Positions 31 to 18,829 of a stretch of 32,000 nucleotides of DNA are shown one piece after another. Every line of letters begins with the position of its first letter. The first letter of the stretch is position 1. The translations under genes and the position numbers were made by a program. This stretch comes from Mechercharimyces sp. CAU 1602 (GTDB lineage: Bacteria > Bacillota > Bacilli > Thermoactinomycetales > JANTPT01): positions 1,659,336-1,691,335 of the forward strand of contig NZ_JANTPT010000001.1 in assembly GCF_024753565.1 (NCBI RefSeq), in the 5' to 3' direction. Under the pieces are notes generated by a model that did not search any database, was not told the origin of the DNA, and was given only the letters and a program-made list of their open reading frames with translations.

Positions 31-1350
31 TTGACGCAACCACTGTTCGATACATGGAGCTGTTCTCAGAGACAGTCGATCAAAATTTCAGTCGGTAAAA
101 AAACCTTGATTGCCCGTGTAATTCATCTACCCAGTAAGGAACACGCTGTCTATATCCATCCCACCCTCGCTCAACAACTCGCCCTCCCCCCTATTAAAGA
201 ACTGCGGGTTCATTACAGTGATCGACACCTTCGCTTTGGACCGGTTATCGCCATTCTCACCACGGGGTATACAGGCTCCTTTGATAAGCCATTTGGTAAT
301 CGCTCTAATTTATTTCGTAGTTTTTTGCTTGCCTCTAGACAAGAGCATCCCATATTCTATGTTTTTTCTCCTGAAATGGTGGACTGGAATACGAACACGA
401 CTACTGGCTGGTTTTATTATAAAAAAAGTAACGGTGACTATGGATGGAGTCGGCGCACAGCTCCCCTCCCTGATGTCATCTATGAGCGTATACCCAACCG
501 TAAAGCAGAATCTTTACCCCAAGTTCAATCTTGCCTAAAACGTCTGAAGGAATTAGGAGCCTGCCCAGTATTTAATCAAGGTTTCTTCAGCAAGTGGTCC
601 ATTCATGAAATCCTATATCAGCAATCAAAAACATCATACTTCATTCCCGAAACCTATATCTCACCCACTATCGAACTGGTTCGCTATATGGTGGATAAAC
701 ACAAGATGGTTTATCTCAAGCCTAATGGCGGGAGTTTAGGATTAGGGATATTACGCATTACGAAAAACAAGAAAAATGGTTATTTTTGTCGCTTTCGTAC
801 TGGTGACCGTAATATTCTACGTAAATTTTCTTCTATTAACAACCTGATTGAACATCATTTCGGACATCAAAAGCAACGCTTTAATCAATATCTTATTCAA
901 CAGGGAATTCGTCTAGTCAGATATCATGATCGCCCTGTCGATTTCCGCGTACACATGAACAAAGATCGACAAGGGAGATGGCAAGTAGTTGGTATTGGTT
1001 CTAAAGTGGCTGGCTTTGGTAGTGTCACTACTCACACGCGAACAGGTGGATCAATAGTCTCTACAGAGCAATTATTGACAGACATTTTCCAATCCCAAGC
1101 CGCATTAGCAGAAAAGGCAATTAAGCAAGCCTCCATCATTATTGCAGAGACGATGGAACAATACATTGATGGTCCCATCGGTGAACTAGGACTTGATATC
1201 GGAATTGACTGTAATCACCATGTATGGCTTTTTGAGGTGAACGCAAAGCCAGGTCGTCATATTTTCGTTCACCCCAGTTTAAAAGCGGCTGGATTTCAGT
1301 CCGCACGTATGATTACCGAATATAGTCTCAAACTAACCAATTTTGTGTAA
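31..1350 (+). CDS. YheC/YheD-family ATP-grasp protein (spore-coat-associated family), paralog 1. It may be 5'-partial, because the reading frame stays open to the left window edge.
   Basis: 439-aa ORF. It shares motif blocks with the next ORF: GPVIAILT, LPDVIYERIP, FNQGFFSKW, VYLKPNGGSLGLGILRI, QQGIRLVRYHDRPVDFR, GIGSKVAG...THTRTGGS and ELGLDIGID...VWLFEVNAKPG, the last being an ATP-grasp C-terminal Mg/ATP region. The TTG at 31 has no obvious RBS, and there is no in-frame stop in nt 1-30. Confidence 0.8.
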   Translation: MTQPLFDTWSCSQRQSIKISVGKKTLIARVIHLPSKEHAVYIHPTLAQQLALPPIKELRVHYSDRHLRFGPVIAILTTGYTGSFDKPFGNRSNLFRSFLLASRQEHPIFYVFSPEMVDWNTNTTTGWFYYKKSNGDYGWSRRTAPLPDVIYERIPNRKAESLPQVQSCLKRLKELGACPVFNQGFFSKWSIHEILYQQSKTSYFIPETYISPTIELVRYMVDKHKMVYLKPNGGSLGLGILRITKNKKNGYFCRFRTGDRNILRKFSSINNLIEHHFGHQKQRFNQYLIQQGIRLVRYHDRPVDFRVHMNKDRQGRWQVVGIGSKVAGFGSVTTHTRTGGSIVSTEQLLTDIFQSQAALAEKAIKQASIIIAETMEQYIDGPIGELGLDIGIDCNHHVWLFEVNAKPGRHIFVHPSLKAAGFQSARMITEYSLKLTNFV

Positions 1351-1362
1351 TGGAGGGAACCT

Positions 1363-2679
1363 ATGATGCTTCAAACTGGATGGCTGGCGTTGAATCCCAG
1401 AGAACAGTCGCCTGTATTCATCCCTCATAAACAGCAAAAAATTACCTTGCCGTCTACACTGCCGGCACAGATAGGTAAAAAGATGAAAGCGATGCTACCT
1501 GTTTCACACTCGACCGTGCATGCAACACCCTCTCCTCGTTATATGCCTACTCGCATCATTCAAGTCGCTCCTGATCAATACCGTGTCGGCCCATTTGTCG
1601 CAATCTTAACATCAGCCGATCGCCGCACTCCTTTTCGCGGCAACTCACTAAACTTTGCTGATTTAATCCGAATGGGACGGAAGATGGGGATTACCGTATT
1701 CGTATTAACACCCGAAGGCATTAAACCCTCTCGCTCTACCGTGAAAGGTTATCTTCTCGATCCTCGCTTCAAAACAAACAAATGGGTGTTAGGTACCCTT
1801 CCCATGCCAGATGTTATTTACAACCGAATTCCCTACCGCTCCTTTGAGGAGAGACCCTTGGAGCAACAGGCTCTCAAAATGTTAAACGAGCTCAACATCC
1901 CTATTTTCAATCCCTCGTTTTTTAACAAATGGACGTTGTACAAACTACTTCGGCGCTCCAGCTCGCTTACATCCCTACTACCCGACACGACACCTTGGAG
2001 TCATATCGATCGCTGTAAACAACTGATAAAAAAGCATCCCGTCCTTTACCTAAAGCCTGTTGATGGTAAAGCGGGCATCGGCATGATTCGCATCAATAAA
2101 CAAAATGATGCTTATGATGTTGTTTATCAAACAAAGTCGAGCCAAAAAAAATACCAGGGAATTTCCAATAATACTCTCTTTTCATTTCTAAATAAACTCA
2201 TACAGTCACACGAATATATCTTACAACAAGGAATTAGCCTTGCTCTATACCGCGATCGCCCTTTCGACCTCCGACTATTAGCCCAAAAAGATAATAATGG
2301 AAAATGGGGCGTTACTGGCATCGGTACTCGATTGGCTGGGAAGGAAGCGATTTCTACTCATGTGCCTCGAGGCGGATCTATTGAAGATACCACCGTGGTA
2401 TTAAGTGAAGTATTTGGTACCCATCATCCTTATATTTATAAAAAAGCAGAAAAGATAGGGATAAAAATCGCCAAGCATATCGAAGTACAGTCAGGACAAT
2501 CTTTAGGGGAAATGTCAATGGATATGGGTGTAGATAAAGAGGGAGAGATTTGGTTCTTTGAGGCTAATTCGAAACCAATGAAATTTGACGAACCACAAAT
2601 CCGTCAACTATCATTACAACGCATTCTCCAATACTCTCTCTATATTAGTGGCTATCAGCCGCAAGGGGAGGGGGAGTAG
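1363..2679 (+). CDS. YheC/YheD-family ATP-grasp protein, paralog 2
   Basis: 438-aa ORF. A GGAGGGA RBS lies in the 12-nt gap after the upstream stop. The motif set matches paralog 1: GPFVAILT, MPDVIYNRIP, FNPSFFNKW, LYLKPVDGKAGIGMIRI, QQGISLALYRDRPFDLR, GIGTRLAG...THVPRGGS and EMSMDMGVD...IWFFEANSKP. Confidence 0.85.
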   Translation: MMLQTGWLALNPREQSPVFIPHKQQKITLPSTLPAQIGKKMKAMLPVSHSTVHATPSPRYMPTRIIQVAPDQYRVGPFVAILTSADRRTPFRGNSLNFADLIRMGRKMGITVFVLTPEGIKPSRSTVKGYLLDPRFKTNKWVLGTLPMPDVIYNRIPYRSFEERPLEQQALKMLNELNIPIFNPSFFNKWTLYKLLRRSSSLTSLLPDTTPWSHIDRCKQLIKKHPVLYLKPVDGKAGIGMIRINKQNDAYDVVYQTKSSQKKYQGISNNTLFSFLNKLIQSHEYILQQGISLALYRDRPFDLRLLAQKDNNGKWGVTGIGTRLAGKEAISTHVPRGGSIEDTTVVLSEVFGTHHPYIYKKAEKIGIKIAKHIEVQSGQSLGEMSMDMGVDKEGEIWFFEANSKPMKFDEPQIRQLSLQRILQYSLYISGYQPQGEGE

Positions 2680-3165
2680 ATGGAGTTCCAAACTCTCACA
2701 TCTGAACAGTTTCAACGTATGTGTCCATACCTGATTCATTTTTTCAAAAACCAAGGTGAGAAGCGCATCACTTATCAATCCTTGCGCTGGCTACACAACC
2801 AACAAAATACTGGATATGAGTTAGGAACAATCGCCACTGTTGCCCTCGCTCAAAAAAGGCTAGCTGGCGCTCTCGTCCTGGGTAGATATGGAATAGAAGA
2901 GTCCTTGCTAGCCGTACACTCCACCTATCGTAATCAAGAAATTGCAGAGACCCTCCTGTTACAAGCGAAAGAGGAGTTAGGGAAATTATATGGTCGAATT
3001 GAGTGTGACAATTCCGCTAGCTTAAAAGCTTGCTTCAACGCCGGTTTAATGGCCTTTCGACTGATCCAGGGAACCACAGGAAAACCTACTTTATGGCTTG
3101 CAGGGGGCGACTGGAGCGAAGAAGAACTGGATCATTATCTAGATGAGAACTCCCTTCCGCTTTAA
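2680..3165 (+). CDS. Small GNAT-fold-like protein; a putative acyl/aminoacyl transferase, possibly with a degenerate CoA-binding loop
   Basis: 161-aa ORF. Its ATG directly abuts the upstream TAG (2677-2679), which suggests translational coupling. VHSTYRNQEIAETLLLQA resembles GNAT motif A (R-x-x-G-x-G/A) with E replacing the first Gly. IECDNSASLKACFNAGL resembles motif B (N..A..lY...GF). The assignment rests on motifs only. Confidence 0.5.
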   Translation: MEFQTLTSEQFQRMCPYLIHFFKNQGEKRITYQSLRWLHNQQNTGYELGTIATVALAQKRLAGALVLGRYGIEESLLAVHSTYRNQEIAETLLLQAKEELGKLYGRIECDNSASLKACFNAGLMAFRLIQGTTGKPTLWLAGGDWSEEELDHYLDENSLPL

Positions 3166-3222: not shown

Positions 3223-3345
3223 CTGCACACTGTTCTTATAGTAAATATGAAAAAGGGTTGTACCTTTTTTTACTTTACGTCTACATATTCGTCCATCATG
3301 AATATAGGTATAAGTAGATACGAATTAGAAAGGGGCTGAGACATT

Positions 3346-6300
3346 TTGGCACAAAACAAAAAAAGACCAACGAAGCGCTCTGTAAAAGGGAAAAAAAATA
3401 TTACGCAGGAAGATGAACGTATACTTAAGCAAATTGTCCATCATCACGGTGACCCTGCACCGGTAAAACAGGCAACCATCTGGCTCTCCGATAACGGGGG
3501 CGCAACGAATACGAGAAAAAAAGGATCTGTGGAATCAAATCATCAATTACACCAACCAGATAACTATTCCCTTCAACAAGGACCCATTCGAGATGAAGAA
3601 GAATTCTCTTCCTCATCAATACAAGCGCAATCAGATGATGTTAGCTTTATCTCATCCATGATTGATCCTCATTCGCAAAGTGAGCCTGGTGCCCCACCCC
3701 CCTCCTATATTCGGGACTTTGCCGGATCTACAGAATGGGGTAACACCGAACTCGATGAGGACGAGGACTCAAACGACGAGGTCATCCATACTACAGACCA
3801 TACCTCCGAAACAGCCAATACGGGGAAGAAATCCTTTCTTCATACTGAATCTGTGGATGCTTCTCATATAAAAGCCGGAGCGATCCATGACCATCACATA
3901 TTACCACGCGCTGTTCAGGCAAAACATATCCAAAATCGCAGTATTGCAGGAAGACACTTATCTGAAAGCATCATTAGACGAATTACTACCCCCTATATCG
4001 CTCCGGCCTCTTTAAGTGGTGAACATCTGATGGAAGGGGTGATCTCTACTTCTCATCTTCAAAATGAAGCCATAACAGGCGGCAAAATCTCTGCCCATGC
4101 CATTCAATCGCAGCACCTAGAACATGGAGCGGTTGTAAATCATCATGTTCGTGATCACTCCATCAGTGGAAATAAATTATCACCCAACTCCATCACTACG
4201 GATAACATTGCTCCTCAAGCCATCCACAGCAAACATATCTCCTCTCGATCGATCGAGGGAGTCCACTTTAAAAAAGGAGCCATTCAAAGTGAGCATATAT
4301 TATCCAACGCAATTGCATCTCAGCACATCAATCCTAAGTCTATTGAAGCGAAGCATATTCTACCTCAGGCGATCCAAGAAGACCAACTAGCTAATGAGTC
4401 TGTAACTAGTAAAAAGCTGGCCCCCAAGTCGATTCAAGCCAAACATTTAACACAAGACTCTGTCAAAAAGAATCACATCAGTGCTCTTAGCATTACAACT
4501 GATCATCTGGACAGTCAAGCCGTTGTCGGTAAGAAAATAGCACCTCATGCGATTCAATCTCGACATATCGCTTCCCAGTCGATCACCAGCGACCATCTCT
4601 TTAACGACTCGATCTCAGGTGAAAAGATAGCTTCACATTCGATTGGAGAACAACACCTAATGAATAAAACTGTAAATAGTCAGCATCTGCAAGATGAATC
4701 CGTTCACACTCATCATCTAGGGAAGCAAGTGATCGCCAGCGATCACTTGGGAGAACAAATTGTAAATAGTGAACATGTGAATAATGAAGCAATCCAAGGC
4801 GAACACCTCGCCAAAGAAGCGATTTCAGGTGAACATCTCCAAAAAGAGGCCATCTCAGGAAAAAAAATAGCCCCACAATCGATTGGAGAACAACACCTCC
4901 TAGAGAAAACCGTCAACAGCCTTCATTTGCAAGACGAATCTATTCAAACACACCATCTGGGAAAGCAAGTGATCGCCAGCGATCACTTGGGAGAACAAAT
5001 TGTAAATAGTGAACATGTGAATAACGAAGCAATCCAAGGTAAACACCTTGCTAAAGAAGCGATTGCAAGTGAGCACCTTCAAAAAGGAGTGATCACTAGC
5101 GACCATATTGATGATGAGTCGATCGTTTCTACACACTTAAGTGCTCTTTCTGTTTCAGGAAAGCACTTAACTGAACGTTCTGTCGACTCAGATCATATTA
5201 AAGCAGGGGCTATAGATGGATCACACATCGCAAAAGAGAGTATTTCACCCAAACACTTGACTAAGGGAACGATCACCAGCGATCAATTAGCAAATGAAGC
5301 AGTCCATTCTAACCACCTCTCCCGCCAATCCGTCACTAGCCAACATATCGGATCCAACACCATTTCACCACACCATCTCTGTGCACAAACCATTCAGCAC
5401 AAACACCTCGACAATGGAGCGGTTACGGGAAAGAATTTAGCTGAACGGGCCGTCCAATCTACTCATTTGAGTGACCAATCTGTCAATAGTCAGCACATTG
5501 CTCCCGCTTCGATCCAAAGTGAACACCTCGCCCTCGGAAGCATTGCCTCCGAACACTTGAGTGATGACATTATGCAAAATTTTACTCCCCCATCAATTAC
5601 ACAAGATCACATTGCTAAAGATTCGATTACATCTGAACAGATTGCTCCGGGAGTTATTGATCAGACTCATATCCAAAAAAACGCTATCCATGGGGATCAT
5701 ATTGATGAGTTTTCCATTCAATCCCACCATCTTGCGATCCAATCAATCTTAGATGAGCACCTATCTGATGGATCTATTGGCGATACCCATATAAAACCCC
5801 AGTCCATTCAAAGTGAGCATCTAGCAGACTTCTCTGTTCACTCCCAACATTTAGCGATCGATTCAGTAACCAATGAGCAATTAGCGGACAATTCCGTGGA
5901 TCATATCCACCTTAAGCACCAATCTGTGCAGAGTAGACACATAGTGGATGAGGCCATTGATTCTACTCATCTCAAACCGACCATCATTCAAGGAAAGCAT
6001 ATAAAGAAACAAACACTCCAGGCACAACATCTCGCCCCTGACTCTATAACGGGTGAGCACCTAAAAGATGAATCTATCAAAACAAACCATATGCAAGCAG
6101 GTTCTATTCAAGGGCAGCATTTGGCTCACCGCTCTATTGCAACAGAGCACCTACGTGATCATACCGTAATTAGCGCACATCTTGGAGAAAAAGTTATCCT
6201 TGCCAAGCATCTAGCTCCTAGTATTATCGATTCTGATCACATTAGAAAACATAGTGTGCAAACCCAACACCTAACCGAACAAAGTATCGGTTCTGATCAC

Positions 6301-8997
6301 ATCAAAGAAGATGCCATCCAGCAACACCATTACGCCGCACACTCCATCAATCAAAAGCATCTTCAGCCCAATTCCATCTCCACCGAACATTTGAGTTCAC
6401 AAACCGTGCAGGCGAAACATTTAGCACCCTCTACTATTCACAACAAGCATCTTACTACCGCTGCCGTAGAAAGTAAACATATCGCTGACCAATCCATCCA
6501 GACGAAGCATTTAACAAAAGCGGCAGTACAAAGTGAGCATATTGCAAAGCAAGCCATCGGGTATGAACAATTACAAGAAAATATCGTGCACAGTGAAAAT
6601 ATTGCCGATCACTCCATTCTTACGCCTCACCTTACCCACCATGTAATCGCAGCCCAACATCTCGCACCACAGGCAATTCATTCTACGCACCTACAAACAG
6701 AAGCCATACAAAACGAACATATCGCCAAGCAGGCTATCCAGGCTCCGCACTTGGGCAAACATGTCATTTCAGATGAACACATCGCTCCCTATGCTATCAG
6801 CAATGAGCATTTGCAAGAAAATATAGTACACAGCAAAAACATCGCAGCTAAATCCATAGACACCAAACATCTCTCAAATGATATCATCACAACAGATCAT
6901 CTCACCGATCGCGCCATCAGCCACGAACAAATACAACAGGATGCTGTACATGGTGAACATATCGCCCCGAATTCCATTCATACAAAGCACCTCACCAGTC
7001 AAGCCATTACTGCCGACCACATCGCCGATCAATCCATCGGGCAAGCGCAATTGCAAGAAGATGCCGTGCAGGGGGAGCATATTGCTAATCTATCGATTCA
7101 AGCAAGACATCTCTCAAATGAAGCCATTACGACTGATCATATTGCACCCGCCGCCATTGCTTCGCCTCATCTTCAACCCGAAAGTGTCAGCAGTCAACAC
7201 TTACAGGCACAAACAGTTGATACAACACACCTTAAAGGAAATATCATCCAAAGCGAGCACCTTACACAACAATCCATTCAACATAAACACCTTCAATCCG
7301 ATACCGTTCACAGCGACAATATCGCTGATGAAGCAATCTCAGCCCGACACCTATCCAGAAATCTCATTTCAACAGAGCATATTGCACCCGCTGCGATATC
7401 CACCACCCATCTCCAGCCAGAAAGTGTGGGTAATCAACACTTACAAGCGGAAACCATCTCCACTTCTCACCTACAAGAAGACATCATTTACAGCCAACAT
7501 CTTACGCCAGAAGCAGTCGCCCATCGTCACCTACAACAACAAGCCGTTCAGAGTGAAAATATCGCCGATGATTCCATTTACACCAATCACCTCACCAATA
7601 AAGCTGTAACGGGTGAAAACATCGCCGATGGTTCCATCTACACCAATCACCTAACTAAAAAAGCTGTAACGGGTGAAAACATCGCTGATCAAGCAATTCA
7701 TCATTCACATCTTCAAATAAACAGTATCAGCGGGGAACATATACAAAGTGATTCCATCTCTGCTGCCCATCTTTCAAATGGGGTCATTACCAACCGTCAT
7801 CTCAGCAATGAAGCGATTCAAGGAGAGCATATCTCTCCTGATACAATCAGCAACATTCACCTCAAAATTGGCTCCATCATGCGAGATCATATTGCAGATC
7901 AGGCAGTCAGCACACGCCATATCGAAGCTGAAGCCATTAACAGAGCCCACATCGCACCACAAAGTATCCAAGCCAAGCATCTTACTACCAACAGTATTGA
8001 GAAAGATCATATACAACCGAATAGTATCGACAGTGAGCAGCTTAATCATGACGCAGTAACGGGCGAACACCTCAGCAAACAATCGATTCAACCGGAACAC
8101 CTTTCACCACGATCAATCCACAGCGAACATCTACAGGAACAAATCATTGACGGTAAACATTTGAAAAAAGGGAGTATCCAGTCTGAGCATTTGAATGATT
8201 GTACCCTTACCAGTAACCACATCGCCCCCGAATCCATTGCCACTGATCACCTACAGCAAGATGTGGTACATGGATTTCATATCGCTCATAACACAATTGA
8301 TGAAACCCATCTAGCTGAGCATGCTATTACCGAAACACAAATTGCTCCTGAAGCGATCACAGCGAAGCATCTTCAACCCTCATCTGTCCAGTCTAACCAT
8401 ATATCTCAAGGAAGCGTTACCTCTACTCATCTCGATAAAAATACGATTCATGCTGAGCATCTCTCACCCGATTCTATTGTGAGCACACACATTCAAGCTG
8501 AAGCCATTCAACAAAAGCATATCGCTTCACAAGCGATCTCGGCAGAACATATAACTAACGGCTCCATCGGCAACAAACATATAGCACCCCACTCCATCGG
8601 ACTGGATAAACTTAATTTTCATCCCAATATCATCTTCCATTCACCCTTTTCAGCACAATGTGGAACACACCATTTCCAAATTCAAGAGAATGAAACCAAC
8701 ACCCTCATTCATATTGATTTGGAGCAACACTTCACTGCCAGCGACTATGTTGTTGTCGCGATGACTGACAACAATGCTACTCAGGTTCACTTGGTAGATC
8801 GTCAACAAAAACGCTTTACTGTAAATGTACAACAATGCGCTCATAGTGAGGAAACAGATTGTCAAGGCTCCATCTCTTGGATCGCTATGGGAGCTTCTCC
8901 CGCTCATCAACATATTCGTCGCTCACAAAAAGATCTAAGCGATCTCTCTAGTATCCCTACCCCGTTTCAAAGCGACGGCAAGTGGACACATCCATAA
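3346..8997 (+). CDS. Giant (1,883 aa) histidine-rich decapeptide-repeat protein with a C-terminal WIAMG-containing ('WIAG-tail'-like) domain and no signal peptide
   Basis: Single uninterrupted 5,652-nt ORF. The TTG start lies 9 nt after GAAAGGGG. Hairpin terminators sit on both sides (3168-3222 and 9024-9061). The N-terminal ~170 aa are basic then acidic low-complexity sequence. About 157 decapeptide units follow. The last ~128 aa are non-repetitive and contain SISWIAMGAS. Confidence 0.85.
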   Translation: MAQNKKRPTKRSVKGKKNITQEDERILKQIVHHHGDPAPVKQATIWLSDNGGATNTRKKGSVESNHQLHQPDNYSLQQGPIRDEEEFSSSSIQAQSDDVSFISSMIDPHSQSEPGAPPPSYIRDFAGSTEWGNTELDEDEDSNDEVIHTTDHTSETANTGKKSFLHTESVDASHIKAGAIHDHHILPRAVQAKHIQNRSIAGRHLSESIIRRITTPYIAPASLSGEHLMEGVISTSHLQNEAITGGKISAHAIQSQHLEHGAVVNHHVRDHSISGNKLSPNSITTDNIAPQAIHSKHISSRSIEGVHFKKGAIQSEHILSNAIASQHINPKSIEAKHILPQAIQEDQLANESVTSKKLAPKSIQAKHLTQDSVKKNHISALSITTDHLDSQAVVGKKIAPHAIQSRHIASQSITSDHLFNDSISGEKIASHSIGEQHLMNKTVNSQHLQDESVHTHHLGKQVIASDHLGEQIVNSEHVNNEAIQGEHLAKEAISGEHLQKEAISGKKIAPQSIGEQHLLEKTVNSLHLQDESIQTHHLGKQVIASDHLGEQIVNSEHVNNEAIQGKHLAKEAIASEHLQKGVITSDHIDDESIVSTHLSALSVSGKHLTERSVDSDHIKAGAIDGSHIAKESISPKHLTKGTITSDQLANEAVHSNHLSRQSVTSQHIGSNTISPHHLCAQTIQHKHLDNGAVTGKNLAERAVQSTHLSDQSVNSQHIAPASIQSEHLALGSIASEHLSDDIMQNFTPPSITQDHIAKDSITSEQIAPGVIDQTHIQKNAIHGDHIDEFSIQSHHLAIQSILDEHLSDGSIGDTHIKPQSIQSEHLADFSVHSQHLAIDSVTNEQLADNSVDHIHLKHQSVQSRHIVDEAIDSTHLKPTIIQGKHIKKQTLQAQHLAPDSITGEHLKDESIKTNHMQAGSIQGQHLAHRSIATEHLRDHTVISAHLGEKVILAKHLAPSIIDSDHIRKHSVQTQHLTEQSIGSDHIKEDAIQQHHYAAHSINQKHLQPNSISTEHLSSQTVQAKHLAPSTIHNKHLTTAAVESKHIADQSIQTKHLTKAAVQSEHIAKQAIGYEQLQENIVHSENIADHSILTPHLTHHVIAAQHLAPQAIHSTHLQTEAIQNEHIAKQAIQAPHLGKHVISDEHIAPYAISNEHLQENIVHSKNIAAKSIDTKHLSNDIITTDHLTDRAISHEQIQQDAVHGEHIAPNSIHTKHLTSQAITADHIADQSIGQAQLQEDAVQGEHIANLSIQARHLSNEAITTDHIAPAAIASPHLQPESVSSQHLQAQTVDTTHLKGNIIQSEHLTQQSIQHKHLQSDTVHSDNIADEAISARHLSRNLISTEHIAPAAISTTHLQPESVGNQHLQAETISTSHLQEDIIYSQHLTPEAVAHRHLQQQAVQSENIADDSIYTNHLTNKAVTGENIADGSIYTNHLTKKAVTGENIADQAIHHSHLQINSISGEHIQSDSISAAHLSNGVITNRHLSNEAIQGEHISPDTISNIHLKIGSIMRDHIADQAVSTRHIEAEAINRAHIAPQSIQAKHLTTNSIEKDHIQPNSIDSEQLNHDAVTGEHLSKQSIQPEHLSPRSIHSEHLQEQIIDGKHLKKGSIQSEHLNDCTLTSNHIAPESIATDHLQQDVVHGFHIAHNTIDETHLAEHAITETQIAPEAITAKHLQPSSVQSNHISQGSVTSTHLDKNTIHAEHLSPDSIVSTHIQAEAIQQKHIASQAISAEHITNGSIGNKHIAPHSIGLDKLNFHPNIIFHSPFSAQCGTHHFQIQENETNTLIHIDLEQHFTASDYVVVAMTDNNATQVHLVDRQQKRFTVNVQQCAHSEETDCQGSISWIAMGASPAHQHIRRSQKDLSDLSSIPTPFQSDGKWTHP
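4611..5090 (+). repeat. Near-identical 240-nt (80-aa, 8-unit) tandem duplication inside the giant ORF
   Basis: 4641-4658 (gattggagaacaacacct) recurs at 4881-4898. The stretch ggaagcaagtgatcgccagcgatcacttgggagaacaaattgtaaatagtgaacatgtgaataa[tc]gaagcaatccaagg occurs at ~4721-4799 and again at ~4961-5039. At protein level, ISGEKIASHSIGEQHL...EAISGEHLQKEA matches ISGKKIAPQSIGEQHL...EAIASEHLQKG. Confidence 0.9.
6841..7560 (+). repeat. Three diverged copies of a 240-nt (80-aa) higher-order repeat
   Basis: Units starting at 6841, 7081 and 7321 begin IAAKSIDTKHLSNDIITTDH, IANLSIQARHLSNEAITTDH and IADEAISARHLSRNLISTEH. Copies 2 and 3 also share HIAPAAI(A/S)..HLQPESV..QHLQA(Q/E)T. Nucleotide matches are seen at 7141 vs 7381. 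Confidence 0.7.
7561..7680 (+). repeat. 60-nt (20-aa) tandem duplication
   Basis: 7561 atcgccgatgattccatttacaccaatcacctcaccaataaagctgtaacgggtgaaaac versus 7621 atcgccgatggttccatctacaccaatcacctaactaaaaaagctgtaacgggtgaaaac. At protein level, IADDSIYTNHLTNKAVTGEN / IADGSIYTNHLTKKAVTGEN. Confidence 0.9.
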
Positions 8998-9023: not shown

Positions 9024-9061
9024 AGCCACATAAAAGCGGGAATTCCCGCTTTTATGTGGCT
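9024..9061. terminator. Bidirectional rho-independent terminator between the convergent giant ORF (+) and spoVR (-)
   Basis: Perfect 17-bp stem AGCCACATAAAAGCGGG / CCCGCTTTTATGTGGCT with a 4-nt AATT loop. An A-run lies upstream and ACTTTTCT downstream. Confidence 0.85.
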
Positions 9062-10680: not shown

Positions 10681-11301
10681 TTATAAGGGGCGTAATACGG
10701 CCCTTACTGGACTCCCATCCGCTTCTTTAAGCGGTAGTGGCAATGCAATCAGTTCATACTTGCCCGCATCTATTTGATCCAATACCGCCCCCTCTAAAAT
10801 ATGTATACCGGCCGCATGCAAAGCATGATGTGCACGCAATTCCTTACTATCTAGTGGATCGACCGAAGGCACGTCCAAACCTAATAGACGCACGCCCTTG
10901 TCCGCTAGATAAGGAGCAATCTCCGGCTCCATATAAGTGATCGACTCAGGAAAAGAAGAATAATCCTTCCAAGCGTCCGTACGAATAAAGAGGCGCTCTA
11001 CACCTGTTAAATCATAAGTTAATAACTCTTGAACTCCAATTGACGTACGCTCAGGCAAGTGTAGGACCAGCACTTCACCCACATACAAGCTGAGATCTAA
11101 ATCTAAAATCTTTGCGCCCTCTTCATCAAAGTGAAAAGGGGCGTCCACATGTGTACCTGTATGCGTACTAAGATTTATTTGCCCTACATTGACCGAACCG
11201 CTTTCCTCCTTTGTCCATGTCAAATCATAAGAGAAAGGAGTATCTCCTGGCCATACGGGCATCCCTTCCTGGAGCGGCTGAGAAATATCGATCCACTTCA
11301 T
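10681..11301 (-). CDS. kynB: Kynurenine formamidase (arylformamidase, cyclase family)
   Basis: 206 aa. The [10 protein letters not shown]...MPVWPGD...STHTGTHVDAPFHF metal-binding signature is typical of bacterial KynB. Its ATG overlaps the kynU stop (TAATG). Confidence 0.85.
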   Translation of the reverse strand: MKWIDISQPLQEGMPVWPGDTPFSYDLTWTKEESGSVNVGQINLSTHTGTHVDAPFHFDEEGAKILDLDLSLYVGEVLVLHLPERTSIGVQELLTYDLTGVERLFIRTDAWKDYSSFPESITYMEPEIAPYLADKGVRLLGLDVPSVDPLDSKELRAHHALHAAGIHILEGAVLDQIDAGKYELIALPLPLKEADGSPVRAVLRPL

Positions 11302-12584
11302 TATGCCACCACTTCACGTTTTTTTTCGTATTTCTCATATCGTTTTTCAACCATAATACGCTTCAATACTTGCACTGTCTGCCACACCTCAAGATACGAG
11401 GTGTAGAGTGCGATTGGAGCTAATCGTATAATATTAGGTTCGCGGTAATCTGGGATGATGCCTTCTTCTTTTAATGCTTTACAAATCCGTATCGCCTCTT
11501 CATGCACCAGTGCAATATGCCCACCACGCCGGTGATCCTCTGTCGGGTTCATAAATGAAAACCCTGTATTCCCCATCTCTGCTTGAATCAAATCCATCAT
11601 ATATCGTGTCATATGCAAAGACTTCTCTCTAATCTGTTCGATCCCGGCTTCTTCAAAAATCTCCAAAGAACCATATAGTGGGGCCATGCTTAATACATGC
11701 GGTGTCCCGATCTGAAATGCTCCTGCCGTTTGCGCAGGCTCCAACTGATGTTTCATATCAAATTGCTTCTCTTTATCCGAACTAAACCATCCGGCTAGAG
11801 CAGGCGTCGCCCCTAAATGCTTCTCGTGAACATACAATCCTGCTACCCCGCCAGGTCCACTATTTACATATTTATAGTGACACCAGACCGCAAAGTCAAC
11901 ATCCCATCCATTAAAAGCATGGGGAATAGCTCCAATCGAGTGACAAGCATCAAACCCGATGACGATTCCATTCTTCTTTGCTTCAGAGGTGAGTCGCTGA
12001 ATATCTAACAATTGCCCACTGCGATACAACACTGTAGGAAGAAGGATAAGGGCTACTTCATCTGTCATCATCTCAATGATGTCTTCTTCTTCTATCATCT
12101 TTCCATCCCGACTCAGAACTTGTAACAGGTGTTCATCTGGATCAAATCCATGGATGCGCAATTGGCTTTGCAGTGCATAAATATCTGAAGGGAACGTCAA
12201 CGTGTCTGCTAAAATCTTGGTTCGCTTCCCTTCCGGTCGATAAAAGGTAGCCACCAATTGATGAATATTGATCGTCGTGGAACCTGTTACAATCACTTCA
12301 TCTGGTAACGCTCCAATCAGAGGAGCTACTTTTGCCCCCAAGGTTTCTGCCATCTCATACCATGGTCGCTTCCCTTTCATCCACCCATCTATGCCAAACT
12401 GGCGCCAATCCGCCATCACGTCTAATAGCGTTTGTTCTGCTCGCTTAGACATCAAACCAAGTGAATTGCCATCCAGATAGATGGTTCCTTCTGCCTGATA
12501 AAACTCTGTCTTATAACGTGCCAGTTCATCTTCTTGATCTAATTCCACAGCATACTGGCGGCTCAAATTATCCAAGTTGGTCAC
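11301..12584 (-). CDS. kynU: Kynureninase (PLP-dependent)
   Basis: Aminotransferase class V-like sequence with kynureninase-typical blocks: [38 protein letters not shown] and GWFS....F. I place the start at the GTG at 12584 (VTNLDN...), 7 nt after AAAGGAAG. The ORF-track start at 12635 would overlap the kynA 3' end by 25 nt. Confidence 0.88.
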
Positions 12585-12610
12585 TTGCACACTTCCTTTC
12601 TCTCTTCGTT

Positions 12611-13450
12611 CTACAATTTCGTCCTTAGCTCCCACAATTCTGGAAACATACGTTGATCAATAACTTGCTTTAAATAGGAAACACCTGAAGATCCTCCCGT
12701 ACCCATCTTCATCCCAATCACTCGTTCCACTGTTTTCATATGACGGAAACGCCATTGTTGAAAACGATCTTCAAGATCAACTAGTTTCTCTGCTAAATCA
12801 TATAAGTCCCAGTACTTCTCAACATCGCGATACACCTGTAACCAAGCTTCCTCCACACTAGGGTGAGCAGCATAAGGCTCCTTCCAATCCCTATTCAACA
12901 CAGCGGAATCAACACTTATCCCTCTTTGTGCAAGTGCTTGGATCGACACATCGTAGATGCTAGGTTCGTGTAACACCTGCTCTAGTCGTTTATACCGTGG
13001 TTGATCATGTTGGTAAATTTCTAAGATGCGCTCATTTTTCTTTCCGAGGAGGAACTCAATCTCACGATTTTGGAACGATTGAAAACCGGATGATTTCCCA
13101 AGGGCATCACGAAATTCCATGTATTCGGAAGGTGTAAGTGTCGACAATACGTCCCATGATTGGATTAACTGAAGTTGACTTTTTGAAACCCGTGAAAGCA
13201 TTTTAAAAGAAGGCTCTAATTCACCTCTACTAATACATGCTTTTGCCTCGGATAGCTCATGAATCATCAGTTTCATCCATAGCTCACTTGCTTGATGAAT
13301 AATGATAAATAGCATCTCATCATGATGGCCTGACAATCGCCGTTGGCTGGATAAGATCTGATCTAACTGTAGATATTCTCCGTAACTCATTTCCTCTTTA
13401 AAATCGGTGTGCATCCCTTTCTCCCACACTTGTCCTTGCTTCTTTTCCAT
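12611..13450 (-). CDS. kynA: Tryptophan 2,3-dioxygenase
   Basis: [15 protein letters not shown]...[19 protein letters not shown] and [11 protein letters not shown] are TDO hallmarks. I place the start at the ATG at 13450 (MEKKQGQ...), 8 nt after GGAGG. The result is 279 aa. Confidence 0.9.
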
Positions 13451-13702
13451 TGTAGGACCTCCATACTCATAATCCATTCTTCTCTTTTAGGATACCGAAT
13501 GCAAAGCAGATAATCACCCCCATATTTATACTCGTCTACAATCCATACTATTCAAACTTATCCACTTGCTTTCATATGACACCCATATCTTAAATGAATG
13601 GCTTTATCCTGTAATACCCGCATAAGCCTAGACACAATATGAAGGAAAGGAGTAATCTATATTTAAGCATATGCAATCCACAGCGGTTTAAAGGAGTGGA
13701 AT

Positions 13703-14578: not shown

Positions 14579-16573
14579 TTATTCACCGGAAGCATTGCTT
14601 TTCCCACGAGGACCACGAGCCCCCCGAGGACCACGTGGTCCGGTAGGACCGGTCATCCCTGTCGCTCCTGTGGCTCCTCGTGGTGCAGGTCTTCCTAGCT
14701 TTAACACAAAAGCATCTGCGAACTGACTCTTATTTTCTGTCTGGAAAGCACCTGGTGTCGTAGGGAAATCCGTAGATAGTGTAAACCCAACCACAGCCAC
14801 CTGTTGATTTTTCTGAACAGCAATATCAATGCCAAAATCATTAGCATCACCACCATAGTAGGTGGAATAAGAAATACCTGTCCCGGCAAAACTCATCTGC
14901 GTAATAAAAGCATCGGCTGAGCCCCGCAAGCGATCTTGGAAGGCATCTGAGGTGAGTGGAAAATTAGCAGAGCGTGTCACTCCTGTTACCCACGCCCCCT
15001 CGAAAGCATCGATGGCAACCCCGGATCCCAGCTCCTCACCGCTTCCTCCCAGGTAGGTAGAGTAAACCTGCGCTGTCCCTGATCGATTCAATTTGCATAC
15101 ATACGCGGAGTTTACTCCTGGAAAGAGAGTCTGAAATGCACCACTGGTTACAGGGAAGTTCGTTGAAGACGTAGAGCCTACAATATATGCTTGATCGCCA
15201 CCATCTATAGCGATAGCACTAGCATCTTCAGCATCGCTTCCTCCCAAGTAAGTAGAGTACACCAGCCCTGAGCCATCTGGATTTAGTCTGGTTACAAAAG
15301 CATTTTGGGACCCTCGCAACTGCGTCTGAAATGCTCCTGACGTAACAGGGAAGTTCGTCGACCTGGATATCCCACTTACGAAGGCATTACCTTCGTTGTT
15401 AACAGCAATCGCTTCTCCTTGGTCCGATTGAGCTCCACCTAAAAATGTGGAATATCGTAACGCGCTCCCTGTTGCGTTTAATTTCGTTGCATATGCAGCT
15501 CCTCCACCTGGAAGTATCGTCTGAAATGCTCCTGAGGTAACCGGAAAATTAGGAGAGGTCGCAATCCCTGTAATATATGAATTCCCTTCGGCGTCAAGAG
15601 CGATATCTTCGCACGAATCAGGAAATTCTCCACCTAAGTAAGTGGAAAAAACAAGGGATGTCCCCTGACTATTAAGACGCGTAATAAAAGCACTCGTAAA
15701 ACCACCCACTGTCGTTTGAAATGCTCCCGACGTTATGGGGAAGTCTATCGAATCTGTAATACCTACTGCAACCGCTTCATCTCCATCAACGGCGATGCCT
15801 CTCCCTGTAGTGATGCAAATACCGCCCAAATACGTAGAGTATACAAGTGAACTACCCGTCTGATTTAGTTTACTAACAAAAGCACTTGACACACCACGAT
15901 TTACCGTTTGAAATGCCCCAGTAGTGACTGGGAAATCATCCGAATCGGTTACGCCCGTTACATAAGCATTGCCGCTGGTATCCACAGCGATCCCCATTCC
16001 GCCTGCTTGTAAATCAGAACCATCAAATCCACTTCCGCCTAGAAGTGTAGAGTAAAAAATAACGGGGTCGATCACAAGTGAGTAACGAGGGTCGTATTCA
16101 CCTACCTCAAAGCCAAGAGCGCCCCCCTCACTGACAACAAAACCTGCTTCAACCTCCACCTTCTTCCCTTCGATCCATTGGTAACTGTACGGTTTTTCTT
16201 CTTTTACTAACACCTGCTGTGTATGAAGAAACAAGTGACCGTCCTTATCCACTTCCATCTTGGTCGCACCCTCATACGTAAGTCGTACAGAACTTATCTC
16301 TGCTCCAGGACTTACAATGACATCGTACTTCAGCTGATCGCCTTGACGATAAAAAACCATATCCACACCAGGAACTATCTGCTCATAAACAGCTCGTTTT
16401 CCCTCATCTACTAACTTTACTCCTTTTCCCTTCGGCAACATCAGCCGCAGAAAAGGGGGGTAGCGAAGCTCCTCCTGCTGCACTCCTGACTGAATTAGTG
16501 AAAAGTTGACCTCGTTATGAACAAAATCTACTTTAACGTCGTTAACGTCCATCTCTTTGTTCGTAGTCTTCAT
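14579..16573 (-). CDS. SBBP-type seven-blade beta-propeller repeat protein with a C-terminal collagen-like (G-X-Y) tail (paralog A, 664 aa)
   Basis: The ATG at 16573 lies 9 nt after AAGGAG. Seven repeats of ~55-65 aa have the form A[VI]D..GNAY[VI]TG.T.S..FP[VI]T.GAFQT...G...AF[VI].[KR]LN..G..L.YSTYLGG. The N-terminal ~170 aa contain GVDMVFYRQGDQLKYDVIVSPGA, which resembles the domain commonly preceding SBBP propellers. The C-terminus reads GATGATGMTGPTGPRGPRGARGPRGKS. Confidence 0.85.
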   Translation of the reverse strand: MKTTNKEMDVNDVKVDFVHNEVNFSLIQSGVQQEELRYPPFLRLMLPKGKGVKLVDEGKRAVYEQIVPGVDMVFYRQGDQLKYDVIVSPGAEISSVRLTYEGATKMEVDKDGHLFLHTQQVLVKEEKPYSYQWIEGKKVEVEAGFVVSEGGALGFEVGEYDPRYSLVIDPVIFYSTLLGGSGFDGSDLQAGGMGIAVDTSGNAYVTGVTDSDDFPVTTGAFQTVNRGVSSAFVSKLNQTGSSLVYSTYLGGICITTGRGIAVDGDEAVAVGITDSIDFPITSGAFQTTVGGFTSAFITRLNSQGTSLVFSTYLGGEFPDSCEDIALDAEGNSYITGIATSPNFPVTSGAFQTILPGGGAAYATKLNATGSALRYSTFLGGAQSDQGEAIAVNNEGNAFVSGISRSTNFPVTSGAFQTQLRGSQNAFVTRLNPDGSGLVYSTYLGGSDAEDASAIAIDGGDQAYIVGSTSSTNFPVTSGAFQTLFPGVNSAYVCKLNRSGTAQVYSTYLGGSGEELGSGVAIDAFEGAWVTGVTRSANFPLTSDAFQDRLRGSADAFITQMSFAGTGISYSTYYGGDANDFGIDIAVQKNQQVAVVGFTLSTDFPTTPGAFQTENKSQFADAFVLKLGRPAPRGATGATGMTGPTGPRGPRGARGPRGKSNASGE
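14597..14677 (-). repeat. Collagen-like G-X-Y coding tract (9 triplets) at the 3' end of paralog A
   Basis: Decoded codon by codon from the minus strand: GAT GAT GMT GPT GPR GPR GAR GPR GKS, followed by NASGE and the stop. Confidence 0.85.
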
Positions 16574-16606
16574 TTCTCCTTCTCCTTTCTTCTCGAGGAT
16601 CTTCCC

Positions 16607-18829
16607 CTATGTCCCGCTAAACTCTCCACTCATTCCCCGTGGCCCACGTGCCCCTCTAGGCCCACGTGGCCCCCTTGGTCCTGTCGGACCTGTTGGACCT
16701 GTAGGTCCAGGAACTGCTACCGGTCCAATCTTAGAAGCAAAAGCATCGTTTGCTCCCTTCAGAACCGTTTGTACAGCAGCAAACGTAGTAGGAAAATCAG
16801 TTGAATTTGTTACTCCTGTCAAATAAGCATTGGTAGAACCATCAACTGCAATTCCTTCCCCTTCATCTTCGCCACTTCCTCCGAGGAAAGAAGAATACGA
16901 AATTCCCGTTCCTGCAAAACTAAACTGAGTAAAAAATGCATCCGCCAAACCGCGCAGATGAGCTTGGAATGCATCCGACGTGAGCGGGAAGTTGGTTGAG
17001 GAAGTTAATCCCGTCACATACGCATTACCAAAGGAATCAAGCGCCAGTGCATTTGCCCTATCATCTTGTGTCCCACCTAAAAAAGTGGAATAGAGCAACC
17101 CTCTCCCACTCGGATTTACCTTCGTAGCAAACGCATCCTCTGCACCCCCTATATTCACTTGAAACGCACCTTCACTAATTGGAAAATCGGGGGAATCCGT
17201 TACGCCGGCCACATATGCATTTCCACTTATATCTACACCAATGCCCGCCCCTTCGTCTTTCCCACTTCCTCCCAAATAAGTGGAGTAGACCAACGTACTC
17301 CCTTCCCCATTTACTTTAGCAACGAAGGCATCCGACACGCCTCCTTGATACGTACGCTCAAACGCACCCAAAGTAGTTGGAAAGTCGAGAGAGGATGTAA
17401 GTCCTGTAATATATGCATTCTGCTCGCCATCCAACACGATTGCCCTCGCTTCCTGCGTACCGCTTCCACCAATAAAACTAGCGTACAATAAGGATGTGCC
17501 TTGCGTGTTAATACCGGCTACAAATCCATCTTGGGTACCTCGAAACATTGTTTGGAATGCACCAGAAGTAACTGGGAAGTCACTTGAAGTCGTCGCTCCC
17601 GTCACATACGCCTGTTGATTTTCGTCAACCGCAATTCCATTCCCATCATCTTCCCCACTACCTCCCAGGTAAGTAGAATAAAGAAGGGAAGTGCCTGTTG
17701 AATTTAGTTTCGATATAAATGCAGACTTCACTCCCTGCAGTACACTTTGTACAGCATTTGCGGTAACTGGAAAGTTAGTCGATTCACTATTGCCAACAAT
17801 ATAAGCGTTGCCCTCTGTATCTACAACAACTCCTTTCCCATCATCTACCTTAGTACCGCCCAAATAAGTAGAGTAAAGAAGTCGCGAGCCGTTTCTGCTA
17901 AGTTTGGTAACAAATACATTTTCATCCCCTCGGATAGCCGTTTGAAAAGCCCCTGATGTAACAGGAAAATTAGTTGAATTGGTTTTCCCCGTTATATATG
18001 CTTCTCCCGCGCCATTGACAGCTATGGCCTTTCCCTCATCGTCTTCACTTCCTCCAATAAAGGTCGAGTAAAATACGACAGGATCAATCACTAGTGGAAG
18101 CTTTGGATCATAATTCCGCTCCGTTACAAAGCCTATATGATCTCCACGACGAACAAAACGAGTCGGTATTGTTCGCAGATGATGATCCTGCCACTGATAG
18201 CCGATCGGTTTTTTATCGCACCACACACCTGAGCCAGTTTGAATAGATAGATCTCCATTCTCCTCGATCGTCATCTTTTGCATTCCTGTAAATAAGAAAT
18301 TTACCTGCTCTAAATCAGCCCCAGGCTGAAGCACAACATCATATTTAATGCGATTTTCCTTCCCATACCAAACGATATCGATACCCGGCCAAACATGTTC
18401 ATACACAATCTCCCGATATCCCCAAACAGACTCCTCTCTCTTTCCTCTGTTCATGCTTATGGCGAACTTTTTGGCACGTCTCCCCCTCACACAAACAGCA
18501 GTAGATCTAGCTCCGAACAAAAGGGATAAACGATCCAATAATGGCTCTCCAGCTCTAAAAACAGCTTCTCCATAAAATAAATCTAGTGAATACCCACCTC
18601 CTGTAGCGTGATATGAGGTTGTTCTCCCCTCTCCTCTCCGTTGAAACCAGACTGATCCAACCCGCTCATGTCCATACTTTCGTACATTCCATTCTTGCTT
18701 CTTAATTCTTGTGTATCTTTTCCCCACAATCCCACATCCTTTCTTATAAATAGAATACGTTTTCACTCCTTTCTTCGTATCCGCAGGTGCGTGGATCTGA
18801 ACCCGAATTAAACACTTGCTCTCCATCAC
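16607..18829 (-). CDS. SBBP-type seven-blade beta-propeller repeat protein with a C-terminal collagen-like tail (paralog B, up to 740 aa; start uncertain)
   Basis: Seven SBBP-like blades, for example DTEGNAYIVGNSESTNFPVTANAVQ and DISGNAYVAGVTDSPDFPISEGAFQ. The N-terminal domain contains WPGIDIVWYGKENRIKYDVVLQPGA. The C-terminus reads GPTGPTGPTGPRGPRGPRGARGPRGMSGEF. The stop lies 33 nt upstream of the paralog A start, so the two are probably co-transcribed. The GTG at 18829 lies only 7 nt downstream of the upstream gene's terminator, and the GTG at 18727 follows AAAGGA. Confidence 0.8.
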   Translation of the reverse strand: MMESKCLIRVQIHAPADTKKGVKTYSIYKKGCGIVGKRYTRIKKQEWNVRKYGHERVGSVWFQRRGEGRTTSYHATGGGYSLDLFYGEAVFRAGEPLLDRLSLLFGARSTAVCVRGRRAKKFAISMNRGKREESVWGYREIVYEHVWPGIDIVWYGKENRIKYDVVLQPGADLEQVNFLFTGMQKMTIEENGDLSIQTGSGVWCDKKPIGYQWQDHHLRTIPTRFVRRGDHIGFVTERNYDPKLPLVIDPVVFYSTFIGGSEDDEGKAIAVNGAGEAYITGKTNSTNFPVTSGAFQTAIRGDENVFVTKLSRNGSRLLYSTYLGGTKVDDGKGVVVDTEGNAYIVGNSESTNFPVTANAVQSVLQGVKSAFISKLNSTGTSLLYSTYLGGSGEDDGNGIAVDENQQAYVTGATTSSDFPVTSGAFQTMFRGTQDGFVAGINTQGTSLLYASFIGGSGTQEARAIVLDGEQNAYITGLTSSLDFPTTLGAFERTYQGGVSDAFVAKVNGEGSTLVYSTYLGGSGKDEGAGIGVDISGNAYVAGVTDSPDFPISEGAFQVNIGGAEDAFATKVNPSGRGLLYSTFLGGTQDDRANALALDSFGNAYVTGLTSSTNFPLTSDAFQAHLRGLADAFFTQFSFAGTGISYSSFLGGSGEDEGEGIAVDGSTNAYLTGVTNSTDFPTTFAAVQTVLKGANDAFASKIGPVAVPGPTGPTGPTGPRGPRGPRGARGPRGMSGEFSGT
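16619..16708 (-). repeat. Collagen-like G-X-Y coding tract (10 triplets) at the 3' end of paralog B
   Basis: Decoded from the minus strand: GPT GPT GPT GPR GPR GPR GAR GPR GMS GEF, followed by SGT and the stop. Confidence 0.85.

Follow-up and report, generated by a model that had tools for sequence, protein, structure and literature searches.

The window analysed here, a stretch of 32,000 nucleotides from Mechercharimyces sp. CAU 1602 (contig NZ_JANTPT010000001.1, positions 1,659,336 to 1,691,335), carries on its forward strand an open reading frame of 5,652 nt (3346-8997) that encodes a histidine-rich repeat protein of 1,883 amino acids. The frame begins with a TTG start codon behind an AAAGGGG ribosome-binding site, and 201 of the residues (10.7%) are histidines. 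Judged by its sequence, the protein belongs to the WIAG-tail family, which is named in NCBIfam and unstudied. Its non-repeat N-terminal region (amino acids 1-167, 3346-3846) comprises a basic patch, a DERIL motif and a polar/acidic linker. Then come a long array of ten-residue units, the WIAG-tail domain (amino acids 1770-1849, 8653-8892) and a short polar C-terminal tail (8893-8994); many orthologues have a long, strongly acidic tail in its place. No signal peptide or membrane segment was found in the 1,883 residues, nor any sortase motif, SLH domain or other wall-anchoring domain, and the protein has no Gly-X-Y triplets. A 17-bp bidirectional terminator hairpin (9024-9061) lies between the gene and the convergent spoVR gene.

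A long decapeptide array in fixed register

Written in rows of ten, amino acids 751-1750 (nt 5596-8595, block 2) fall into 100 units without any indel, with the consensus [IV]-x-s-x-H-[LI]-x-x-x-[SA], or in finer form [IV]-x-(S/T/G/A)-x-H-[LI]-x-x-x-[SA]. Counting from zero, position 0 is I or V in 98 units and position 5 is L or I in 98; position 9 is S, A or T in 85; and position 4, the His slot, holds H in 87 units, Q in 7 and N in 6. The codons of this slot end at 5610, 5640 and so on up to 8580. The original prediction, that a His codon or its Q/N substitute falls every 30 nt over 100 units, was exact. Block 1 (4012-5571) comprises 52 units, also in strict register, with H in 42 His slots, K in 6, N in 2 and Q in 2, and His codons that end at 4026 through 5556. 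Its regularity had been predicted to equal that of block 2, and it does; one unit of eight residues, MQNFTPPS (5572-5595), stands between the two.

In the register test, a position-specific matrix built from block 2 was run over the whole protein with a wrap-around dynamic programme, indels being allowed. By this profile alignment, the array covers amino acids 168-1751 (1,584 residues, about 158 units) and contains only two register events, one of +3 near amino acid 213 and one of -2 near amino acid 747. Uninterrupted in-register runs measure 42, 534 and 1,005 residues. The shortest, of about four units, lies at 3847-3972 and is followed by the first break (3973-4011), which includes a Pro and a Tyr and adds a net three residues; the second break is the eight-residue unit mentioned above. 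In the Fourier analysis, the spectral power of I, L, V and M at period 5 was 228, as against about 1-3 for the flanking non-harmonic peaks on the same scale, and the His signal appeared at period 10 and its harmonics. Within each unit, hydrophobic residues recur at every fifth position; one of the two is preceded by a small residue and the other by His, or by Lys in relatives.

Mean pairwise DNA identity of the units is 44.5% (maximum 87% in block 2), and only 11 of 11,476 pairs are at least 80% identical in DNA. Codons are mixed at the conserved residues: His is CAT 77 times and CAC 52 times, Ile is ATT 52 times and ATC 49 times, and Ser is encoded by both TCN and AGY. Tandem Repeats Finder detected only two younger duplications, one of 240 nt in two copies (eight units, 4612-5091, within block 1) and one of 60 nt in 2.3 copies (two units, about 2.3-2.4 copies over 7546-7689). 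The 240-nt pair, the youngest large duplication, has a synonymous divergence (dS) of 0.83, a non-synonymous divergence (dN) of 0.083 and a dN/dS of 0.10; even this pair is of old date and has evolved under purifying selection. The array is therefore not a recent amplification, which agrees with what had been read from the sequence at first sight.

Because the repeat is so regular, long spurious open reading frames run through the array in other frames and on the opposite strand (6878-7609 and 7748-8059 on the forward strand, 7774-8100 on the reverse strand).

Unit length and unit number among relatives

Homologues turned up in 34 of 40 related genomes searched in six frames, and these span 20 of the 23 genera of the same order. 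The register was compared in 20 full orthologues of this order and in 8 WIAG-tail proteins from other families of Bacilli, the arrays of which span 554-2,207 amino acids, or about 55-220 units. None of these 28 relatives has a net register shift. Frequent indels of one or two residues inside the units, named beforehand as the observation that would speak against a conserved unit length, were not seen: the events were confined to +1/-1 pairs that compensate each other within 3-6 residues and a single insertion of exactly ten residues. Over the 29 proteins (about 30,800 array residues) two net shifts were counted in total, both in the window protein, which is thus the one member examined with two register breaks. 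The original prediction had also called such strictness unusual for bacterial repeat proteins. The strictness itself stands, but it is no peculiarity of this protein; it is the rule across the WIAG-tail family, and similar repeats in phage fibres share it.

In alignments of close orthologues, indels within the array measure 10, 20, 30, 40, 60 or 110 amino acids only, whereas those in the flanking N-terminal region and C-terminal tail take arbitrary lengths (1, 2, 3, 4, 5, 8, 9, 12, 14, 15, 22 and 82 amino acids). Gain and loss of odd numbers of units are tolerated, since two metagenomic proteins that are 99% identical differ by one block of 110 residues (11 units). Together with the dN/dS of 0.10, the contrast between array and flanks gives good support to the view that selection preserves unit length, as had been proposed for this array, with unit number free and unit length fixed.

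Lys occupies the His slot in up to 45% of the units of orthologues. Because His alternates so freely with Lys, the histidines are likely exposed and not part of a buried ladder; as the leading explanation, a buried ladder of metal-binding histidines was rejected on this ground. Block 2 of the window protein is unlike the arrays of other members in being almost pure His, with no Lys.

The orthologue of Marinithermofilum abyssi (L034, 13823-15301) contains almost identical super-repeats of 120 amino acids (12 units), and its public assembly breaks up into N runs within the array. For arrays as young as this, short-read assemblies therefore give unreliable unit counts.

Phage-fibre likeness, family and genomic setting

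The repeat region matches PHROG 892, 'tail fiber protein', in 23 stretches (560 bits, E 2e-167), and there are matches to five other PHROG families with tail-fibre, tail or tail-tip (Tal) annotations. Searched with tblastn, the repeats hit minor tail, tail and tail-fibre genes of phages at 21-27% identity. The distant database matches are of phage type; their arrays repeat the motif fewer times, and the His slot is mostly filled by Lys. Some of them bear the annotations PF06598 and PF12789, and some carry PF13550, PF06605 or the S74 chaperone domain PF13884 behind the same repeats. S74, an intramolecular chaperone, is generally taken as a mark of trimeric fibres. The window protein and the phage shafts share the same 5+5 motif (hydrophobic residue, small residue, charged slot), the strict ten-residue register and the placement of the array in front of a distal binding domain. 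The phage arrays among these matches differ in having about 5 to about 56 units, mostly with Lys, against about 158 units with His; the window gene, unlike them, is chromosomal and vertically inherited, and its match to the PHROG 892 repeat profile is found without a phage or tail gene cluster in the 32-kb window. The best match among PDB sequences is the fibre protein gp28 of cyanophage P-SCSP1u (E 0.002), the distal part of which, matched by the repeats, is not resolved in the structure (PMC10575957). PF06598 was without a structural template in 2021, and no solved structure covering the decapeptide repeat was detectable among the PDB sequence matches.

Two AlphaFold2 monomer runs were made on amino acids 1551-1883, the first with the internal repeats as alignment rows and the second with seven metagenomic tail homologues added. 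In the first model, with a mean predicted local distance difference test score (pLDDT) of 54, each shaft unit is a six-residue strand plus a four-residue turn (pLDDT about 55-77) and the tail is unreliable; no significant PDB match was obtained, and the best structure match in BFVD was the phage host-specificity protein J (E 7e-15). In the second model, the tail has six strands (pLDDT 77-92) and the shaft becomes short helical turns, with confidence falling towards the tail. Foldseek matched the modelled tail to SLL-2, Helix pomatia agglutinin (HPA), Helix aspersa agglutinin and the R1 pyocin fibre, and also to the AP22 fibre and tailspike and the LKA1 and phi297 tailspikes (3wmp, 2ce6, 6cxb, 6cl5, 4mtm, 4y9v, 4ru4; probability 1.0, E 7e-4 to 5e-2, target template-modelling score 0.5-0.63, root-mean-square deviation 2.7-4 Å). 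Most of these matches belong to a cluster of trimeric, polysaccharide-binding distal domains to which pyocin fibre tips also belong (PMC6116203). At model level, the C-terminal domain would be a six-stranded beta-sandwich of the H-type-lectin/fibre-tip fold, the same as that of pyocin R-type and AP22 fibre tips and of the lectins HPA and SLL-2. Sequence similarity to these domains is not detectable, and the Pfam H_lectin model gave no match at E<=1. The homology of the shaft to phage tail-fibre shafts and the fibre-tip-like C-terminal domain suggest a rigid rod or fibre as the product of the array.

The C-terminal domain is recognised by NCBIfam NF012201, WIAG-tail (58.1 bits, E 7e-16, cut-off 33; 64.5 bits in the genome search). 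Pfam gave no match to the protein at E<=1. As in other NF012201 proteins, the domain (58-64 bits, one match per genome) sits at the C-terminal end of a long repetitive protein, an architecture common to the 28 relatives; the window member has neither the otherwise nearly invariant Pro-x-Cys motif nor the long acidic tail of many members. Among 301 sampled genomes of Bacilli, 77 contain a WIAG-tail domain, with a single match each, and it is near-universal in some families (21 of 23, 23 of 23 and 10 of 11 genomes); 14 control genomes gave no match. All the Bacilli families that bear it are SpoIVA-positive, and none of 66 genomes from four SpoIVA-negative families has it. A phmmer search of 1.84 billion representatives with the domain returned only 10 weak, mostly fragmentary matches. 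In a word-indexed search of 5.8 billion proteins, the full protein retrieved only distant phage-like matches and the tail none. We found no published function or structure for the family, and one passing annotation in the literature.

Many members carry 50-250 extremely acidic, low-complexity residues after the WIAG-tail domain (L115, L033, L030 and others in our set of loci); in the window protein, about 34 polar residues stand there. In one large family (f28; genomes G296, G272, G304, G221 and others), the WIAG-tail gene lies at a constant 56-57 kb from spoIVA wherever both coordinates are listed, and a soluble-looking FtsH-like protein of about 505 amino acids (AAA plus peptidase M41; L115 6524-8038, L119 5365-6873) precedes it.

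At its N-terminus, the window protein has the motif QEDERILKQIV after a Lys/Arg-rich patch (amino acids 1-35, 3346-3450). All orthologues have a basic N-terminal patch and then a (D/E)ERILxEL-like motif, and we regard the two as a candidate anchoring or targeting signal. Upstream of the gene, about 15 orthologues share a strongly conserved promoter-like element, GTTTCCAC-N13/14-(t)GAATATACCTA, at a distance of about 35-45 nt from the start codon. Of this element, the window retains GAATATA..TA (3297-3311, forward strand, about 35 nt 5' of the start codon) and does not keep the upstream half. The GAAT of the element is reminiscent of the -10 element of sigma-H promoters.

Two YheC/D-type ATP-grasp genes and a GNAT-like gene lie upstream on the same strand (31-3165). 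Past the terminator follow the convergent spoVR, the product of which is 72% identical to Marinithermofilum abyssi SpoVR (an identity that puts the organism in or near the Thermoactinomycetales), and then kynurenine-pathway genes, two leaderless beta-propeller proteins and housekeeping genes; no phage gene was found in the window. Of the 20 orthologous loci from the order, most also have the flanking yheC/D-type ATP-grasp gene and spoVR. In other Bacilli, spoVR is not accompanied by the repeat gene and the ATP-grasp gene; the repeat gene is present at 1 of 80 spoVR loci, where it is broken off by N runs. The spoVR linkage is specific to this order. In other families, WIAG-tail genes stand beside a YheC/D gene, glycosyltransferases or a nucleotidyl-transferase, and in L114, from a distant family with large genomes, it is again a YheC/D gene that adjoins the WIAG-tail gene. 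The neighbouring YheC/D-type ATP-grasp and GNAT-like enzymes may act on the fibre.

The two leaderless proteins are adjacent (14579-18829, reverse strand), carry DUF7948 and SBBP beta-propeller repeats and may be further spore-surface candidates; the one of 740 amino acids has a short collagen-repeat match at its C-terminus. A complete kynurenine trio (tryptophan 2,3-dioxygenase, kynureninase and a cyclase/formamidase-type protein; 10681-13477, reverse strand) lies between spoVR and a PHP-domain gene.

A proposed tail-fibre-like rod and its alternatives

We propose, with middling confidence, that the protein is a homotrimeric tail-fibre-like rod, probably located on the spore surface. It would have three parts: a basic N-terminal anchor, a beta-structured shaft of about 158 decapeptides and a C-terminal lectin-like knob. 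Each decapeptide would be one fixed structural step of the shaft. A change in unit length would put all downstream core residues out of phase, so that only whole units could be gained or lost, and such gains and losses would set the length of the fibre and leave its geometry unaltered. If one unit makes one rung of 0.48 nm, the rod would measure about 76 nm. By analogy with the phage and pyocin relatives, folding of the homotrimer would most likely be nucleated at the C-terminal knob. Three features, the lack of an export signal, the restriction of the family to sporeformers and the neighbouring genes, suggest that the mother cell probably makes the protein and, as with BclA, places it on the surface of the spore. 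A carbohydrate might be bound by the knob there, and a surface responsive to pH or metals could arise from the row of about 130 histidines.

The BclA-type collagen-like fibres of the exosporium nap in the Bacillus cereus group are leaderless, mother-cell-made and trimeric. They have an anchor at the N-terminus, a shaft of repeats with a length set by the number of units and, at the C-terminus, a beta-sandwich that nucleates trimerisation. The working principle suggested for the window protein would be the same, but the resemblance is functional only: the shaft proposed here would be built of beta-structured decapeptides where the BclA-type fibres have a Gly-X-Y triple helix, and there is no homology between the two proteins.

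Several observations weigh against this proposal. The spore location is drawn from genomic context, and the upstream element has no clean match to the sporulation consensus sequences of sigma E, K, G, F or H. Several families of sporeformers lack the WIAG-tail domain (0 of 22 genomes in one SpoIVA-positive family, for example), and it is therefore not a core spore component. The domain was not found in 50,697 phage records, nor in viral contigs, and has no detectable match among PDB sequences. Its link to lectin folds comes from one model built on an eight-sequence alignment. The two shaft models disagree (shaft pLDDT 36-83), as is typical of obligate oligomeric fibres. Finally, a two-unit (20-residue) alternation is statistically clear and is not predicted by a simple three-fold beta-helix.

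This alternation is what a different fold, a monomeric beta-solenoid related to the pentapeptide-repeat proteins, would account for. Two decapeptides, with four five-residue sides, would then make one coil of 20 residues, and the rod would be about 38 nm long with two stacked histidine ladders. Similarity between units is greater at even lags than at odd ones; in block 2 the even and odd consensus read roughly I-x-T-x-H-L-Q and V-x-S/G-E-H-I-A-P/D (permutation p 0.0005), the difference reaches p<0.05 in 11 of 14 orthologues, and the dominant higher-order lags (2, 4, 6, 8 or 12 units) are almost always even. The hydrophobic residues every five positions, the intolerance of indels and the rod-like product are also those of pentapeptide-repeat proteins (Rfr fold), and weak profile matches were obtained with HetL (E 1.6e-5), MXKDX and the designed solenoids 4yc5/4yfo (E about 0.005). 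All the pentapeptide matches are below cut-off, however (HetL 24 bits versus 260, MXKDX 37 versus 41), and the Pfam pentapeptide models have no match at E<=1. The A(D/N)LXX consensus is absent, and the repeat proper has a period of 10 residues, with a weak one of 20. The solenoid fold needs a small buried residue at i-2, but these slots (unit positions 3 and 8) hold E/K/D/T and Q/D/E/N/G, and the His slot accepts Lys too freely for a buried ladder. A strict structural period of 20 residues had to be downgraded in view of the 11-unit indel between 99% identical proteins, and even-sized duplications, perpetuated by recombination between like units, may partly explain the alternation. The monomer models, moreover, are of low confidence and mutually inconsistent, and most structural relatives of the modelled C-terminal domain are trimeric. 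Taken with these points, a monomeric solenoid appears unlikely.

The tail-fibre-like rod could also belong elsewhere than on spores, as a fibre or adhesin of vegetative cells or hyphae that is released or exported non-classically. A fibre with a lectin-like tip suits adhesion in general, and the spore link is contextual throughout. Against this, neither a signal peptide nor a sortase motif, SLH domain or other recognisable wall anchor is present, the family is restricted to families of sporeformers, and it is found repeatedly beside yheC/D-type coat-associated genes, spoVR or glycosyltransferases, which makes a vegetative role rather improbable.

That the gene encodes a genuine prophage or tailocin tail fibre, unrelated to host biology, is suggested by the strong PHROG matches and the modelled fibre-tip-like fold of the C-terminus. 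We consider it very improbable: the 32 kb examined contain no phage gene, most genomes of the order have the gene at one and the same place in the chromosome, and the domain is missing from the phage records and viral contigs searched. The conserved position, the single match per genome and the near-universal presence in two other families (21 of 23 and 23 of 23 genomes) therefore indicate vertical inheritance and not a mobile element. An assembly artefact is also highly unlikely as the source of the perfect array, for although long repeats are error-prone in short-read assemblies, as the N runs that break the nearly identical 120-residue super-repeats of the Marinithermofilum orthologue illustrate, units about 45% identical in DNA cannot collapse and reads map to them uniquely, the frame is open over 5.6 kb, and 28 independent relatives, several from single-contig genomes, have the same register.

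A broader conjecture, to which we give limited credence, is that the WIAG-tail proteins are a widespread and unrecognised class of endospore surface fibres, derived from phage tail fibres or shared with them. Their shaft would be a beta-fibre fold new to the PDB, with a length set in quanta of ten residues; in Thermoactinomycetales it would expose a ladder of more than 100 histidines for metal binding or pH switching, and a lectin-like tip would attach spores to polysaccharide surfaces. Should the reading as a tail-fibre-like rod be right, an unstudied, host-encoded appendage that resembles a phage fibre would occur in several large sporeformer groups: the Thermoactinomycetales and, at the least, two further large Bacilli families, one of which has genomes of 5-7.6 Mb.

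The family is also a natural experiment in repeat evolution, with about 3,000 units that vary in number and sequence and never in length, and so a clean system for asking how the geometry of a fibre constrains indels. Fibres of phages and giant viruses commonly contain the shaft repeat, and a soluble, long version from bacteria could be the easiest way to its structure. A regular, length-programmable, histidine-lined rod would moreover be an attractive scaffold for materials work.

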